From Escherichia coli (GTDB taxonomy: Bacteria; Pseudomonadota; Gammaproteobacteria; Enterobacterales; Enterobacteriaceae): a DNA stretch of 64,000 bases. Location of the stretch: assembly GCF_003018255.1 (NCBI RefSeq), contig NZ_CP027440.1; one strand, given 5' to 3'. The position numbers were made by a program, and so were the translations under genes. Below, in pieces: positions 2,228 to 63,185 of this stretch; positions within the stretch are counted from its first letter, which is position 1; the number at the start of each line of letters is the position of its first letter. The notes below the pieces were generated by a model. It had not been told where the DNA came from. It did not search any database and saw only the letters and a list, made by a program, of their open reading frames with translations.

Positions 2228-3742
2228 TCAGGCAACTGCCTGGCTGACTTTAGGCATCGCAAGGCTCAGTGCCTGACGCTCATCTGCCTGCTCGTGTAAC
2301 AATTCACCGGCGATTTCGCCTTCCCGCATCACCACAATCCGGTCGGCAACGCCGAGGACTTCAGGTAAGTCGCTGGAGGCAAACAGCACCGCCACACCCT
2401 GCGCCGCCAGCGCATAAATTACGTTATATATTTCGTGCTTAGCACCAACATCAATGCCGCGCGTAGGTTCATCCAGCAAAATGACCTTCATCTCTTCCGA
2501 TAACCAGCGGCCCAGAATGGCTTTTTGCTGATTTCCGCCTGAGAGATTCATGATCAGTTGATCAGCGCCCGGCGTTTTGATGTTGAGCGAACGAATGTGG
2601 TGATCGGCATTGTTTTCTTCCCAACCGTTGTTGATTACACAACCGCCGAGCACATGTGTACGTCTGGCACTGATGTTGATATTGTCGCGAACGGAGTGCA
2701 CGGGAATAATGCCTTCCGCTTTGCGATCTTCCGGGCAGAGCATCATGCCTGCGGCAATGGCGTGGCTCGGTTTACGAATATCGATCGGCTGTTGGTCGAT
2801 ATAAACCTGACCGGCGGTGATTTGCGTCCCGCCAAACATGCCTTTCATTAATTCGCTACGCCCTGCCCCGACCAGACCAAACAGACCGACAATTTCACCA
2901 CTGCGAACCGCCAGACTTATTGGCGTACGTACGCCTGGTGCTTTCACAGCATCAAGACGCAGCCGCTCCTCGCCATAACTACGCGGTTGCCAGCCGTAGA
3001 TATCGCCAATGTCTCGCCCGACCATCGCCTGCACCAGTGCGTCGTGGTCAACCTGCTGCATATCGGTAAAGGTTTTGACATAACGCCCATCTTTAAAGAC
3101 GGTGATGGCATCGCTGAGGGCAAATATTTCTTCCATACGGTGAGAAACGTATAAGATCACCCGCCCCTCTTTTCGCAGTTCACGAATAACGCGGAAAAGA
3201 TTGTCGATTTCGCGGGCAGAGAGGGAGCTGGTTGGCTCATCAAAGGCGATAATTTTGGCGTTACGCGCCAGCGCTTTGGCGATTTCAACCATCTGCCACT
3301 GACCAATGGAGAGATATTTCAGCGGCGTGTCCGGGTCAATATCCATACCAAGATGTTTAAGTTGTAAACCCGCCTCATAATTCAGCAATGAGCGATTCAC
3401 AATGCCGCCTTTATGCGGCAGCTGGCCGAGATAGATGTTTTCCGCGACGGTCATTTCCGGCACGAGATGCAGTTCCTGGTAAATAATCGCCACCCCCGCG
3501 TTAAGTGCTGCGGTCGTGTCGGAAAAGGACATTTCCTGCCCATTAATCACTACAGAACCCGTGGTTGGCGCATAGTTGCCGCTGAGGATTTTTAAGAGAG
3601 TTGATTTTCCTGCGCCATTTTCACCCATCAACGCATGAACCTGACCGGCATAGCAATCAAAACTAATATCCGTCAGCGCCTTAACGCCGGGAAACGTTTT
3701 ACCGATGCCGCGAAATGAGAGATACGGGGTAGACTGTTGCAT
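2228..3742 (-). CDS. araG: L-arabinose ABC transporter ATP-binding protein AraG
   Basis: ORF 2228..3787. Two ABC cassettes (Walker [10 protein letters not shown] and LSGGNQQK signature). Start trimmed to [17 protein letters not shown] (504 aa). Confidence 0.92.
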
Positions 3743-3811
3743 AACGTCTCCGTGAATCACTGGTCGTTCACACCCCCTCTGCATCATGCAGAGGGGAATT
3801 TTTCCGGCAAA

Positions 3812-4801
3812 TTACTTACCGCCTAAACCTTTTTTCTCCAGTTCTTCTTTAAAGTTGTCACGCGTGATCAATACCACGTCGGTAACTTCGGTAAATTTTG
3901 GCGGTTCAACGTCTTTTGCTACCCAGTTGTAAAGCATTTCGCTGGATTTATAGCCATGTACGTCCGGGCTTGGCAGCAGGGAACCGTAGAAGCCGGTTGC
4001 CTGTGCCTTAGACAGTTCGCTCACCGCATCCACACCGTTAATACCGATACCGATGATATCGGCCGCTTTAAAGCCCTGACCTTCCGTCGCGCGTACGCCG
4101 CCAAGTACGGTGCTGTCGTTCATACCGACGATCAGCCAATGTTTAACTTCCGGATGTTGAACCAGCATTGAGTTGGCAGCGTCAAATGCCCCCGGGATGT
4201 CGTTAGATTTGGTAGGTACCTGATAAATTTGTTTTTCCGGGAATCCTGCAGCTTTCAGCGCATCCATAGACCCCGTAGTACGGCGACGAGCCGTATCCAG
4301 TTCGTTGGCGGTAATCGCCATCACCGCGCTTTCTTTGACATCCCAGCCACGTTTCTGCATCTCTTTATACAGTTCCTGGCCCTGACGTTCGCCAATTTTG
4401 GTCGCTGCCATCATCACCAGCGGAACGGTATCCATTGGCTTGCCTTTGGCGTTAACAAACTGGTCATCCACGGCAATGACTTTCATATCGTAGCCACGCG
4501 CTTTCGCCACGATGGCAGAGCCGAGTTTCGGGTCCGGAGTACAAATAACGAAACCTTTTGCGCCACTGGCAGCCAGGCTGTCGATCGCGTTCAATGTTTT
4601 TTCGCCATCCGGCACGGCAATCTTAATAACTTCAAACCCTAAATCCTTCCCAGCTTTATCGGCAAACTTCCATTCGGTCTGGAACCACGGCTCTTCCGGT
4701 TGCTTCACCAGGAAACCGAGCTTCAGGTTCTCCGCCATAGCGGATTGTGACATAACGGCTGCCAGACCAATGGCTGCCAGGGCTTTAGTAAATTTGTGCA
4801 T
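3812..4801 (-). CDS. araF: L-arabinose-binding periplasmic protein AraF
   Basis: ORF 3812..4852. Start trimmed to MHKFTKALAAIGLAAVMSQSAMA signal peptide followed by ENLKLGFLVKQPEEPWFQTEWKFADKAG. Confidence 0.92.
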   Translation of the reverse strand: MHKFTKALAAIGLAAVMSQSAMAENLKLGFLVKQPEEPWFQTEWKFADKAGKDLGFEVIKIAVPDGEKTLNAIDSLAASGAKGFVICTPDPKLGSAIVAKARGYDMKVIAVDDQFVNAKGKPMDTVPLVMMAATKIGERQGQELYKEMQKRGWDVKESAVMAITANELDTARRRTTGSMDALKAAGFPEKQIYQVPTKSNDIPGAFDAANSMLVQHPEVKHWLIVGMNDSTVLGGVRATEGQGFKAADIIGIGINGVDAVSELSKAQATGFYGSLLPSPDVHGYKSSEMLYNWVAKDVEPPKFTEVTDVVLITRDNFKEELEKKGLGGK

Positions 4802-43250: not shown

Positions 43251-43337
43251 AAATCCCGACCCTGAGGGGGTCGGGATGAAACTTGCTTAAGCAAGAAGCA
43301 CTTAAAAAATTCGTTACACCAGGAAATCTGATGTGTT
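43251..43337 (-). ncRNA. dsrA: DsrA small regulatory RNA (Hfq-dependent; activates rpoS translation, represses hns)
   Basis: Minus strand reads AACACATCAGATTTCCTGGTGTAACGAATTTTTTAAGTGCTTCTTGCTTAAGCAAGTTTCATCCCGACCCCCTCAGGGTCGGGATTT; the 3' stem-loop CCCGACCCCCTCAGGGTCGGG plus U-run is its intrinsic terminator. Confidence 0.93.
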
Positions 43338-51526: not shown

Positions 51527-52070
51527 GACTCAATCATTTTTTGAACAAATAGATAAATTTTGCGCAACGGCGGTGAATACAGGAAAATTCGATTTGAACG
51601 ATGTTATTTATCTTTGATTTCGGCTTTATTAATTCACTCAATCAATATATTGGCACTGATTACAATTATACCTTTTTATTTTTCTGTGTCATCATGCCTC
51701 CGTTATTAGCCTTTTATCGTCTTGTTTATATTTTTTTGGCCGGCATGATGCCGGCTTTTTTTATGCCTTCATTAATGTGCGCGAGATCACACCAGCCGTT
51801 TAGCACACAATCATTGATACTCCCTATCTTTTCGATCAACTCATAACATATTGATATACATCCATAATGTTCGTGAATATTTATATTCAGAATTCATAGC
51901 CACGAATTATATTAAATAGATTAGAAACATTTTGAAATCTTTTAAATACATTTGTTACATGTAATCTTTAAAATAAAATGAACTTCATAGAATAGTATCC
52001 AAATGTGCTTTTTTTGGATAACAGCACTTATTGATATATTCATGAAGATTATAATCACAAGGGAATACAT

Positions 52071-52172
52071 AATGAAAAGAAAAGTTCTGGCAATGCTGGT
52101 CCCGGCGTTATTAGTTGCTGGCGCAGCAAATGCGGCTGAAATTTATAATAAAAATGGGTTTTTTGTTGCCTG
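52071..52172 (+). pseudogene. yedS: 5' remnant of an OmpC-family porin gene (yedS-like), truncated after about 30 codons
   Basis: atgaaaagaaaagttctggcaatgctggtc... translates to [29 protein letters not shown] then FFVA-stop. This is the porin signal peptide plus mature N-terminus (AEIYNK[DN]G); homology ends where the prophage begins. Confidence 0.8.
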
Positions 52173-52244
52173 AAATTTATGCTCTTTAAAATCATGATGT
52201 TAGAAGCACTGTTTTTTAACGATGGCGACAAAATGGCGGCAGCG

Positions 52245-52463
52245 TCAAAGAGAGAGCGCCACCTGTCCTGATTTCATTGGATGCGGCTGAACCGGATTTG
52301 ACTCTTTTGGCGTTGCAATCGAACGAACAAAAGTTTCATGAGTAACAAAAGTATGGCTGCAGTTAATGTTCTGGCACTGGTTGTAACGCTCTTTGGTCAA
52401 TGAAGATACCTGAAAACTGCTGCGAGTATGGGCGGCACTTCCACACAGTGGGCAAATCATCAT
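52245..52463 (-). CDS. ogr: P2 Ogr-like zinc-finger late-gene transcription activator
   Basis: ORF 52245..52496; MICPLCGSAAHTRSSFQVSSLTKERYNQCQNINCSHTFVTHETF contains the CxxC...CxxxxC Ogr/Delta zinc finger. Confidence 0.85.
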   Translation of the reverse strand: MMICPLCGSAAHTRSSFQVSSLTKERYNQCQNINCSHTFVTHETFVRSIATPKESNPVQPHPMKSGQVALSL

Positions 52464-52553
52464 TTTTCGAGTTCTCCCCATTTTTGCTAAATTCACAATA
52501 ATGATACCGCATTATTCCATTTTGAAAACTTAAAAGTTCTCCATTGCGAAGAA

Positions 52554-59533: not shown

Positions 59534-60100
59534 TCAGGGGGATTCATTGATCTTATTTGCCGGAAATTTTCTATAAATGGTAGAAACGCCTACATCAAAA
59601 ATCAGTGCAATACGCTGTCTTGATTCTCCGGCCTCGAGTAAACGCCCAATCTGTGCCCACTGTTCGGTGGTCAACTTAGGACGGCGTCCACCTACTCTGC
59701 CTTTGGCACGAGCTGCAGCCAGCCCTGCCCTGGTACGTTCAACTATCAGTTCGCGTTCCATTTCAGCCAGGGCACCCATGACATGAAAAAAGAAACGGCC
59801 CATTGGGGTACTGGTATCAATACTGTCAGTCAGGCTTCTGAAATTCACACCACGCTGGCGCAACTCTTCTATCAGCGTAACAAGATGCCGCATACTGCGC
59901 CCCAACCTGTCCAGCTTCCAGACAACCAGCGTGTCTCCTGCCGATAGTGTCCTGAGTAGTTTTTTCAGCCCCGGTCTGTCGGACTTAGTGCCACTGATTT
60001 TGTCCTCAAAAATCCGCTCACATCCCGCGCAGTTCAGTGCATTACGTTGCAAATCGGTGTTCTGGTCATTTGTTGACACGCGTACATAGCCAATAAGCAT
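59534..60100 (-). CDS. pin: serine-recombinase DNA invertase (Pin/Gin/Cin/Hin family)
   Basis: ORF 59534..60106; MLIGYVRVSTNDQNTDLQRNAL... with catalytic Ser in the YVRVST motif and C-terminal HTH (GVSTIYRKF); very close to e14 Pin. Confidence 0.9.
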   Translation of the reverse strand: MLIGYVRVSTNDQNTDLQRNALNCAGCERIFEDKISGTKSDRPGLKKLLRTLSAGDTLVVWKLDRLGRSMRHLVTLIEELRQRGVNFRSLTDSIDTSTPMGRFFFHVMGALAEMERELIVERTRAGLAAARAKGRVGGRRPKLTTEQWAQIGRLLEAGESRQRIALIFDVGVSTIYRKFPANKINESP

Positions 60101-60155
60101 GATCATCCCCCTGAATAAAAACCGGAGATGATGCCAGTTAGCTGTTACCTCTGCA

Positions 60156-60181
60156 TTTTCTTAAACGTTGGTTTGGGAGAA
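60156..60181. repeat. invertase crossover site, left (pix/gix/cix-like)
   Basis: ttttcttaaacgttggtttgggagaa; inverted repeat of the site at 62124..62149. Confidence 0.75.
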
Positions 60182-60664
60182 GGTTCAGCATTACCTGTTG
60201 GTGCGCCTGTTCCGTGGCCTTCAGAGACACCTCCAACAGGCTGGCTGAAATGCAACGGGGCGGCTTTTTCTGCTGAAGAATACCCGGAACTGGCAAAGGC
60301 TTACCCGACAAATAAATTGCCTGATTTACGAGGTGAATTTATTCGTGGCTGGGATGATGAACGTGGTGTGGATAGTGGGCGAACTCTGCTTTCAGCGCAA
60401 GGAGATGCTATTCGAAACATTACTGGCGGTTTTGGTCAGTTGCGCGTAAACAGCGAAATTAATGCAATTGTCGATGTTCAAAGTGTGAGTGGGGCTTTTT
60501 ACGGAGGTACCTCAGTCCGGAATAACATCAATGTGTCTATGACATACGCTAATGACCGAAAAATCCGACAAGATGTTCACTTCTCGGCGGCAAATGTTGT
60601 TCCAACAGCAAATGAAAATCGTCCACGTAACATCGCCTTTAATTATATTGTGAGGGCCGCATGA
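60156..60664 (+). CDS. alternative tail-fibre C-terminal segment (Sv'-like), silent in this orientation and lacking its own start
   Basis: The frame is open through the crossover site (..LGE-GSALPVGAPVPWPSETPPTGWLKCNGAAFSAEEYPELAKAYPTNKLPDLRGEFIRGWDDERG...), so inversion would fuse it to the H constant part at the conserved GLGE junction. The track's ATG at 60128 is probably not a real start. Confidence 0.7.
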
Positions 60665-61265
60665 TGAATAAAGCTGTATTAAATAGCAAACTCATTGCCA
60701 TAAAAGCGGGAGACATTATCATTTATAATTATGATGGTGAAACGCGGGAATATATTTCTACATCAACTGAATATCTCGCTGTCGGCGTCGGTATCCGGCA
60801 TGTTCTTGTTTGGATGCACCAGGTACACATAAAGCTGGTTATGCAATTTGTCGTTCTGTAGATTTAAACTCATGGGAATATGTGCCAGACCATCGCGGTG
60901 AAGTTGTCTATAACACCGAAACGGGAGAATCAAAAGAAATCACAGCTCCGGGTGATTACCCTGAAAATACAACCACTATCGCCCCATTAACGCCATACGA
61001 TAAATGGGATGGCGAGAAATGGGTGACGGATACCGAGGCACAGCATAGCGCCGCAGTAGATGCAGCGGAAGCACAGCGCCAGTCGCTGATTGATACTGCA
61101 ATGGCTTCCATCAGTCTGATTCAACTGAAATTGCATGCCGGACGTAAACTGACGCAGGCAGAAACAACCCGGCTTAACGCTGTGCTGGATTACATTGACA
61201 CGGTGACGGCAACAGATACCAGCACCGCGCCGGATGTCATCTGGCCTGAACTACCGGAGGCGTAG
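60661..61265 (+). pseudogene. tail-fibre assembly protein gene (Tfa', partner of Sv') with an apparent 1-bp frameshift
   Basis: N-terminal part in frame 1 (60661..60861, MMNKAVLNSKLIAIKAGDIIIYNYDGETREYISTSTEYLAVGVGI) and C-terminal part in another frame (60810..61265, ...DAPGTHKAGYAICRSV...TDTSTAPDVIWPELPEA). The frames join if one C is added in ggtatc-cggca around 60795. Confidence 0.6.
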
Positions 61266-61680
61266 GCCATTCAATATCTGGAGCACTGGAGGTATCAACC
61301 AGTTCCAGTGCGTCCAGATAATCCAGCCATAAATTATATTGTTCCAGTTCGTCACCTTTCAGACGACCAATAGCAGCTTTGCCAGGCCACTGATGGGTGT
61401 TGATGTAGGTATTGGCTTCTGAAACCAAAGATATTTTTTTCATTTCAGCCATCAACACCTCATCCTCTTTTGAAGGCGGTGGGGAATTAATCCATATTGG
61501 CCGTCCTGAACTGTCAGCGCCAATTTCTTTCCCTTCTGGATGCAGCCCAAGAAATTGCTCATATCTTTCTCTGGTAATTTCAATAACATCATCAGGAAGC
61601 GTTCCCGCATCCTCATATTCTGGAAACAATTCTTGCAGATAAAAACTTTTACTTCCGGGTGAAAAGAATACTGAGTTCAT
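61237..61680 (-). CDS. tail-fibre assembly protein (Tfa / P2 gpG-like), active orientation
   Basis: 147-aa ORF directly downstream of H; C-terminus ...DTSSAPDIEWPTPPVVQAR resembles the Tfa family C-terminal motif. Confidence 0.8.
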   Translation of the reverse strand: MNSVFFSPGSKSFYLQELFPEYEDAGTLPDDVIEITRERYEQFLGLHPEGKEIGADSSGRPIWINSPPPSKEDEVLMAEMKKISLVSEANTYINTHQWPGKAAIGRLKGDELEQYNLWLDYLDALELVDTSSAPDIEWPTPPVVQAR

Positions 61681-61682
61681 TC

Positions 61683-63185
61683 TTACCGTCCAATGATTAA
61701 GGCTGAGACGCTGGTATCTGAAGGAAAGGCTGCATTCAGTGGTTTGTCGACTTTGAATACAATCGTATTATTCCCCCTGACAGCGGCAAAAGAACAAACC
61801 GCAGTCGCGTATGAACCTGTAATATTACTGGATACACCACCATAAGCTGTTGTTGATACCAGAGGGATAACGCCCAGCACCTTATTAGGAAATACAAAGG
61901 GCAATGTGGCTGTGGCAATATAAGACTTATTAGAACCTGTGATGGAATAAGCATTATCAGTCATTCCATTCATCGCCACTGGGCCGCTTATACTTACAGT
62001 AACCATCTGAATGATTAGCCCGTCAGGTTGACGAATCACAAAATTTCCATTGCCACCAGTAACCGTCCAGAAAGACATATCAGGGATTTGGTTTTCCCCG
62101 TTGCCCACATTCCGTTTTGCCGCTTCTCCCAAACCAAGGTATGTGAGAAGACCAGCTACATCCTTTCCACTCAAATTGGTAAGCGTATTGTCCAGCGGTT
62201 GTTTACCTGCCAGCGCATTAAGCATTGTCGTGGCAAAGTTCGGATCATTCCCCAGTGCCGCCGCCAGTTCGTTCAGTGTATCCAGTGCAGCAGGTGCAGA
62301 ACCCACCATTCCTGCAATCGCCGATTTCACAAAAGCCGTAGTGGCAATCTGTGTATTGTTGACCGACTGCGCCGCCGTGGGGGCTGTTGGCGTTCCGGTG
62401 AGTGCCGGACTCGACAACGGTGCTTTTAGTGCCAGCGCATTGTTAATGGTGGTACTGAAATTCGGATCATTGTTAATGGCTGCGGCTATTTCTTTCAGCG
62501 TGTCCAGCGTGGCTGGCGCACCATTAATAAGGGCCGTCAGTGCCGCCTGTACAAACGCAGTGGTCGCAACCTGCGTGGTATTATTCCCCGCCGCTGGCGT
62601 TGGCGCTTTGGGGGTTCCGGTAAATGTCGGGCTGGCTTTTGGCGCGTACTGTGAATGCGGGTCCGGTGCGGCAAGATGTTTTGCCATCTGATCATCCGCG
62701 TACACCTTCAGCTCCAGTGCCTTGTCATCCACATACTTGCGGGTTGCCAGCACTACAGCAGGGTCGATTTTCAGGGTGATATTGTCCGTGCTGCTGGTAA
62801 TCAGCACCATGCGCACGGTCTGAGTGCGCCCGCTACCTTCAGCCAGTTGCGGCTTATAGCTTTCCGGGCAGTTGCCCACGGCAATCAATGCCCCGGACTC
62901 ATCAAACAAGCCCACTTCACGTATCCACCAACCGCCCTCGTTTTCAGGGATCACCTGTTCGGCAATAATCTGGCTGCTGTTCTGCGGGTCGATATAAAGC
63001 ATATTCAGCGCAGCCCGGCGTTTCTCATTTACCAGTGCCGTCTGCTTTGCGTCCGGCGTTGGCAATACTCCACCGCCATCGCCCACCGCCATATGGGTAA
63101 TTTTTAGCGGCACACCGAGCGCGGCGGCGCTGGCAAGTTTCGCCGCGCCAATATCCGTCAGCAGGGTATAAAATTTTGTGCTCAT
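61683..63185 (-). CDS. tail fibre protein (P2 gpH-like); C-terminal part (61683..62123) lies inside the invertible segment
   Basis: 500-aa ORF; N-terminus MSTKFYTLLTDIGAAKLASAAALGVPLKITHMAVGDGGG... resembles P2 gpH; repeated motif TAFV...ALDTLNELAAALGNDPNF. Confidence 0.88.
   Translation of the reverse strand: MSTKFYTLLTDIGAAKLASAAALGVPLKITHMAVGDGGGVLPTPDAKQTALVNEKRRAALNMLYIDPQNSSQIIAEQVIPENEGGWWIREVGLFDESGALIAVGNCPESYKPQLAEGSGRTQTVRMVLITSSTDNITLKIDPAVVLATRKYVDDKALELKVYADDQMAKHLAAPDPHSQYAPKASPTFTGTPKAPTPAAGNNTTQVATTAFVQAALTALINGAPATLDTLKEIAAAINNDPNFSTTINNALALKAPLSSPALTGTPTAPTAAQSVNNTQIATTAFVKSAIAGMVGSAPAALDTLNELAAALGNDPNFATTMLNALAGKQPLDNTLTNLSGKDVAGLLTYLGLGEAAKRNVGNGENQIPDMSFWTVTGGNGNFVIRQPDGLIIQMVTVSISGPVAMNGMTDNAYSITGSNKSYIATATLPFVFPNKVLGVIPLVSTTAYGGVSSNITGSYATAVCSFAAVRGNNTIVFKVDKPLNAAFPSDTSVSALIIGR
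62124..62149. repeat. invertase crossover site, right (pix/gix/cix-like)
   Basis: ttctcccaaaccaaggtatgtgagaa; lies inside the H coding sequence at codons ~346-354 (LTYLGLGEA). Confidence 0.75.

Follow-up and report, generated by a model that had tools for sequence, protein, structure and literature searches.

The window analysed here, a stretch of 64,000 nucleotides (nt) from Escherichia coli contig NZ_CP027440.1, includes part of the tail gene cluster of a P2-like prophage. Within this cluster, the gene of a Pin-type serine DNA invertase adjoins a segment that is bracketed by two short sites in inverted orientation, and the segment carries two tail fibre tips together with their assembly genes (Table 1). 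One strand encodes Sv, the C-terminal part of the tail fibre protein H, followed by Tfa, and the opposite strand encodes a second pair, Sv' and Tfa'. This organization points to a DNA inversion switch that exchanges the end of the tail fibre, and the initial annotation had read the locus in this way, as a switch of the Mu G, P1 C and e14 P type.

Table 1. Features of the tail fibre locus, with their positions in the window
Feature	Position	Strand	Sequence or supporting evidence
Pin-type serine DNA invertase gene, 188 amino acids (aa), intact	59534..60100	-	Pfam, PHROG, identity to PinE, Cin and Gin
Candidate recombinational enhancer, nt 19-90 of the invertase gene	60011..60082	-	Fis-like 15-mers; annotation of P1 cin
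Left site, invertase-proximal, 26 base pairs (bp)	60156..60181	+	TTTTCTTAAACG-TT-GGTTTGGGAGAA; central dinucleotide 60168-60169
Right site, 26 bp, within the H coding frame	62124..62149	+	TTCTCCCAAACC-AA-GGTATGTGAGAA; central dinucleotide 62136-62137
Invertible segment, 1,968 bp between the central dinucleotides	60169..62136	.	Reverse-complemented in public assemblies with 100% identical flanks
H, whole native gene, 500 aa	61683..63185	-	Open reading frame (ORF)
H constant part, residues 1-350	62137..63185	-	Pfam Phage_tail_fib N-terminal domain, E 1.5e-64
Sv, currently expressed variable C-terminus, H residues 351-500	61683..62136	-	Weak Pfam Gp53-like_C match, E 0.0017
Sv', silent alternative C-terminus, about 164 aa, Collar domain	60169..60664	+	PHROG tail fibre families, E 7e-74
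Tfa, assembly gene of the expressed cassette, 147 aa, intact	61237..61680	-	PHROG 188 'tail fiber assembly protein', E 1.5e-54
Tfa', TfaE-type assembly gene, broken	60661..61265	+	PHROG 105; alignment to intact homologues

Recombination sites of the segment

Two inverted 26-bp sites with a perfect common core had been proposed, and both are found in the window. They share 15 bp without a mismatch (CTTCTCCCAAACCAA), and a repeat finder delimits slightly longer arms of 27 nt (60156-60182 and 62123-62149), which are 81% complementary and separated by a gap of 1,940 nt. A search with the degenerate site pattern, allowing up to three mismatches, returned two places in the 64-kb window against a chance expectation of 0.06, and none of 100 shuffled sequences reached two. 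The same search revealed no third recombination site in the window, as would belong to a shufflon such as that of a locus in enteropathogenic E. coli (EPEC), therefore the locus is a simple two-site system. A multiple-inversion system, represented by the shufflons, Min of p15B and the three-repeat P2-like locus of EPEC, was rejected because the window has only two sites.

For the comparison with the pix, gix and cix sites, reference sites were taken from annotated records, namely cixL and cixR with their crossover points in P1, the boundaries of the G segment in Mu and the repeats of the P segment in e14. Sixteen half-sites yielded the consensus TTNTCNNAAACC, which all four half-sites of the window fit, and the resemblance to Hin-family sites extends beyond the 15-bp core. 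In the left site, 25 of the 26 bases are the same as in the pinE-side pix site of e14. The central dinucleotides read TT in the left and AA in the right site on the plus strand; in the same sense they are AA and AA and hence compatible, and identical central dinucleotides are what a 2-bp staggered cut with a 180-degree rotation requires.

Two alternative C-termini of the tail fibre

The right site encodes the ...LTYLGLGE... stretch of H, and because it lies in the H reading frame, two alternative fusions of H are predicted. Inversion of positions 60169-62136 in silico joins residues 1-350 of H in frame to Sv', which results in an open 514-aa product, H', with a Pfam Collar domain (E 8e-15). 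At its junction ...LTYLGLGE runs into GSALPVG..., its stop codon overlaps the tfa' start, and it has the Phage_tail_fib N-terminal domain in common with the 500-aa product. The junction peptides of the initial annotation, LTYLGLGE/AAKRNVG and VGLGE/GSALPVG, are correct, and the in-frame swap of the fibre C-terminus that it foresaw is borne out by both forms being open. The Sv' cassette is promoterless, and no evidence supports an independent start for it.

A direct comparison of Sv with Sv' gave no significant similarity (E 0.26), and an NCBIfam scan of H, Sv', Tfa and Tfa' produced no family above threshold. Given their different C-terminal domains, Collar in one case and a weak Gp53-like_C match in the other, H and H' may confer different host ranges.

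The constant part of H has two further features. Positions 62191-62645 show about 72% DNA identity to the repeated elements b1 and b2 of the P1 S gene, and short internal repeats occur as well, for example at 62438-62449 and 62468-62479. Both are in line with the mosaic fibre shafts that are common to P1-, Mu- and P2-type phages.

Orientation of the segment in public genomes

Inversion was judged from public assemblies, which stood in for reads of the isolate. The window copy is in the Sv/Tfa state; native order denotes the order of the window, and inverted order the segment flipped in silico. An exact-protein look-up in NCBI assemblies found the 514-aa H' in 16 public contigs and the native 500-aa H in five. 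In these assemblies the flanks are 100% identical up to position 60182 and from position 62123, with breakpoints inside the shared core, and the constant part of H is 100% identical between assemblies of either orientation. Two of the loci, one inverted (L012) and one native (L014), occupy the same coordinate in contigs of about 446 kb. Their flanks are 100% identical to the window and so is the segment, apart from a 1-nt indel, and their junctions fall within 60165-60182 and 62123-62137.

Complete E. coli genomes in RefSeq match the window sequence at 96.6% at best, and the exact allele was found in draft assemblies. Among the complete genomes, alleles with about 96% identity and at least 80% coverage occur in native order in 23 cases and in inverted order in 31, and the 3.8-kb region inverted in silico has single-piece matches with 100% coverage. 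Furthermore, three locus pairs have 100% identical flanks and a segment that is exactly reverse-complemented, with the breakpoints inside the shared core. These are strains 1604D011 and 1504D004, whose chromosomes are equal in length and carry the locus at the same coordinates; NCTC11121 and NCTC9966; and two copies inside the record NZ_OU342919.1. The comparison of assemblies thus indicates that the segment inverts with breakpoints in the sites. The two orders are true alternatives of one allele, found among bacteria that are very closely related, rather than mis-assemblies; a repeat of 15-27 bp is too short to mislead an assembler.

Some of these records have peculiarities of their own. The two copies of NZ_OU342919.1 (L002, 5676-12477, and L005, 4889462-4896263) lie about 19 kb apart across the start of the circular record; their flanks are 100% identical, their segments are opposite, and after each comes a terminase whose annotation reads 'partial in the middle of a contig'. 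The arrangement has the look of an assembly overlap that was never trimmed and was kept apart by a culture with both orientations. In NCTC9966 (L007, NZ_LS483296.1), the segment is inverted and the invertase is annotated as frameshifted at 1635-2200, so this strain may be a naturally locked variant. Two swine isolates with chromosomes of identical length (L003 and L004) differ by 17 substitutions at positions 3232-4204 of the locus, in the inverted segment only, while their flanks are 100% identical. Possible sources are cassette exchange with another prophage copy, these records holding two to three matching places each, or the polishing of mixed-orientation reads.

The invertase and its putative enhancer

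The initial annotation placed a serine invertase next to the segment, and the gene found there is intact and 85.3% identical at the protein level to PinE of e14, 77.4% to Cin of P1 and 73.4% to Gin of Mu. Translation starts at the ATG at 60100, and the mechanically called ORF begins two codons upstream, at 60106. The protein has a Pfam Resolvase domain (E 4e-53) and an HTH_7 domain (E 3e-15), it matches PHROG 125 'DNA invertase' with an E-value of 1e-101, and it retains the catalytic serine motif YVRVSTNDQ (serine 9). An NCBIfam scan of the invertase returned serine-recombinase models only, all of them below cutoff.

In Mu and P1, members of this family have a recombinational enhancer near the start of the invertase gene, and the suggestion that one might be found here led to a candidate at the level of sequence. 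Two Fis-like 15-mers are located at 60064-60078 (TGTCAACAAATGACC) and 60016-60030 (GCGCGGGATGTGAGC). Their centres are separated by 48 bp, the same distance between Fis-site centres that Johnson, Glasgow and Simon reportedly gave in 1987. An alignment of the first 135 nt of four invertase genes, scanned with degenerate Fis motifs, places both of them (nt 23-37 and 71-85) at the same positions in pinE, gin and cin. In addition, the annotated enhancer of C inversion in the P1 record spans nt 19-90 of cin, and both motifs of the window fall inside this interval. Fis would probably bind at both motifs. The distance from the nearer motif to the centre of the left site is 97.5 bp, and it is 96.5 bp in both Mu and e14; the native Hin arrangement has an enhancer-site distance of about 100 bp (PMC3798978).

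The interval from the left site to the invertase start codon contains, on the minus strand, a terminator-like hairpin with a T run at 60120-60139. This hairpin could insulate the invertase from read-through of the late operon.

The tail fibre assembly genes

Two assembly genes had been noted, and both are present; Tfa is intact, Tfa' is not, owing to a deletion of one nucleotide. The Pfam domain Caudo_TAP was found on the identical tfa of locus L014. Tfa and Tfa' are alike over their last 80 residues or so only, with 35% identity. In the window, the Tfa' frame is interrupted, leaving ORFs of 66 and 151 aa that cover positions 5-49 and 56-203 of the PHROG 105 profile. Alignment to intact 200-aa homologues traces the frameshift to a single missing C after 60794 (60794-60795), which turns CCC into CC.

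The same prophage has the extra C and an intact 200-aa tfa' in four public assemblies, which over up to 6.3 kb are otherwise equal to the window, save for an alignment edge effect at 60167. As no other difference was found, the deletion is private to the window sequence, the result of a recent mutation or else of an error in sequencing. A programmed frameshift was also considered and was rejected in view of these four otherwise identical copies with the extra C and the intact 200-aa ORF. Reading of the sequence around the deletion (GGTATCCGGCATG), which involved no formal test, revealed no obvious slippery run. That the deletion is real, and that the switch toggles between a working Sv/Tfa fibre and a fibre without its cognate chaperone, seems to us rather unlikely.

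Mechanism and alternative explanations

The best explanation of the locus is a two-state inversion switch of the Hin/Gin/Cin/Pin family in the tail cluster of an E. coli P2-like prophage, to which we assign a probability of roughly 0.9. By analogy with the known members, invertase dimers would bind the two 26-bp sites and assemble into an invertasome with host Fis, which would occupy the enhancer at the 5' end of the invertase gene. The strands would then be cut at the central AA/TT, probably at this position of the 15-bp core, and a 180-degree rotation of the subunits would flip the 1,968-bp segment. Since the right site lies in the H frame, residues 1-350 of H, which end in LGLGE, are joined either to Sv, followed by Tfa (500 aa), or to Sv', followed by Tfa' (514 aa). 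Transcription of the late operon would presumably express one receptor-binding tip and its chaperone at a time, and lysates could have a mixed host range. The likeness to the Mu G, P1 C and e14 P switches proposed in the initial annotation is sustained by the invertase, the sites, the enhancer-like motifs, the in-frame swap and the occurrence of both orientations.

Several observations weigh against this explanation. The evidence for inversion comes from the comparison of assemblies and not from reads of this very isolate. The enhancer motifs sit in the most conserved coding stretch of the invertase, and since the same DNA encodes the most conserved part of the protein, their conservation alone is not proof of function. 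Furthermore, a simple scan of the minus strand between the left site and the start codon found no sigma-70-like promoter for the invertase, and promoter-like matches in the region only equalled the expectation from shuffled sequences. Lastly, Tfa' is frameshifted in the window, and if the deletion is real, the Sv'/Tfa' state may be non-functional or impaired.

The frameshift of Tfa' also raises the question of whether the segment is a frozen relic, which was once invertible and no longer switches in this lineage, so that the orientations in the databases are old fixed states. Such switches do decay, as the frameshifted invertase of the relative NCTC9966 illustrates. Here, however, the invertase ORF and both sites are intact, and both orientations occur in assemblies whose flanks and, save for the 1-nt indel, whose segment match the window at 100%. 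Near-identical assemblies in both orientations point to very recent switching rather than old fixed states, and we regard a relic as improbable. An even smaller chance is left for a process that does not involve the invertase, either RecA-dependent recombination between the inverted repeats or exchange of cassettes with other prophages. Several related cassettes are common in E. coli, with a median of two matching places per genome, and the 17 substitutions between L003 and L004 inside the segment suggest some exchange or a mixed assembly. A perfect repeat of 15 bp, however, is short for RecA to recombine efficiently, each pair has its breakpoints exactly in the 26-bp sites, and a dedicated adjoining invertase is conserved together with the segment.

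It is equally hard to credit that the two orientations are an artefact of mis-assembly across the repeats. The record NZ_OU342919.1, with its two opposite copies, does resemble an assembly problem, but reads of both orientations from a single culture best account for this oddity. Repeats of 15-27 bp are shorter than the usual assembly k-mers and reads, and the 21 contigs represent independent assemblies with intact fused genes in one or the other state. An inversion switch driven by the adjoining invertase consequently remains the favoured explanation.

Relation to known inversion systems

As a module, the locus is most like the Pin system of e14. Besides the invertase (85% identical) and the invertase-proximal site (25/26), the inner half-site GGTTTGGGAGAA and the central TT are the same. 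In both, transcription of the invertase leads away from the segment, and the site lies 96.5-97.5 bp from the enhancer motif. At the DNA level, the invertase, the site and the start of stfE, corresponding to Sv', are 83% identical, and tfaE, corresponding to Tfa', is 88% identical. In contrast, the P segment lies in a defective lambdoid element, whereas the cassette of the window is found in a P2-like tail cluster with a P2-type H, and Sv and the 147-aa Tfa are unlike stfP and tfaP, except for the 3' end of tfa.

The Gin system of the Mu G segment and the Cin system of the P1 C segment belong to the same family (73-77% identity) and share the 26-bp sites, the 5' enhancer and the S/U versus S'/U' logic. 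They differ in the length of the segment, which is about 2.0 kb in the window, about 3 kb in Mu and 4.2 kb in P1, and in the fibre tips. In P1, moreover, cin faces the segment and cixL overlaps the 3' end of cin, whereas the arrangement of the window is of the Mu/e14 type.

P2 itself has the same tail gene order, J, I, H, G, then FI, FII, E, T, U, D and ogr. However, it carries fun(Z) between G and FI and has neither an invertase nor a second cassette, which agrees with the earlier assignment of the segment to the Z/fun position and with the statement that P2 lacks such a segment. A blastn search of the segment region against the H-G-Z-FI stretch of P2 gave no match.

Inversion of this kind is already known from P2-like prophages. 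Phase-variable inversion of tail fibre genes has been demonstrated by paired-end sequencing and polymerase chain reaction in the P2-like prophages of EPEC strain E2348/69 and in e14 (Goldberg et al. 2014, PMC4272514). One of the EPEC loci has two variants, and another has three repeats and four variants (PMC4272514). These loci resemble the window in phage type, in position and in the logic of an invertase with inverted repeats, and their variants coexist in EPEC (PMC4272514), but the locus with three repeats differs from the two sites of the window. The Z/fun hotspot of P2-like phages frequently harbours a DNA invertase, accompanied by inversion of the neighbouring genes (preprint 10.1101/2024.10.15.618418). 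In addition, an invertase is annotated between two tail fibre cassettes in many deposited P2-like phages, including Cartapus, pro483, 500465-1 and 500465-2 and several Klebsiella phages. Fels-2 and SopE-phi also carry invertases of this type. Both tail fibre inversion in P2-like prophages and invertases at the Z/fun hotspot have thus been published, and the feature of the window is not new; its arrangement is not unusual for this group of prophages.

The surrounding prophage

Chromosomal DNA of E. coli, with uvrC, fliC, araG and other genes, makes up the first 25 kb of the window and is 99.6% identical to that of strain JNE23-011; from about 52.2 kb on, the window contains one arm of a prophage. 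On the minus strand, its genes follow the order ogr, D, U, T (1,025 aa), E, FII (171 aa), FI (390 aa), invertase, segment, H, I and J, and its nearest phage records belong to the Peduoviridae, for example Escherichia phage 500465-1, with a DNA identity of 95-99.8%. Gene order and genome similarity both place it with the P2-like phages (Peduoviridae).

At the end of the prophage (51673-52500), an ogr-like zinc-finger ORF is present at about 52245-52460 on the minus strand. The small RNA gene rseX lies at 51673-51762, and DsrA at 43251-43337. The N-terminus of a porin-like protein (ORF 52003-52173) breaks off beside the ogr-like ORF, which suggests integration of the prophage into a porin gene immediately downstream of rseX.

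Phage 500465-1 (L001, NC_049342.1) has flanks that are 99.8% identical to the window up to the sites. Its positions 2229-4100 hold a different, shorter cassette set, in which the TfaE-type part alone is related (88.7%) and lies in the opposite orientation. Evidently, judging from this comparison, such segments are exchanged as modules between otherwise near-identical phages.

Implications for annotation and host range

The sole feature specific to this copy is the private frameshift of Tfa'. If the deletion were real, the fibre without a cognate chaperone would be an 'off' state for infectivity, or the 147-aa Tfa would chaperone both tips. Beyond correct annotation the importance of the locus is slight. 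Differences in orientation between otherwise identical E. coli assemblies at this place are expected biology, neither errors nor strain markers. Sv' should not be annotated as an independent gene, and H is better described as a phase-variable gene with two products. Finally, the prediction of host range and typing by tail fibre sequence must take both tips into account.

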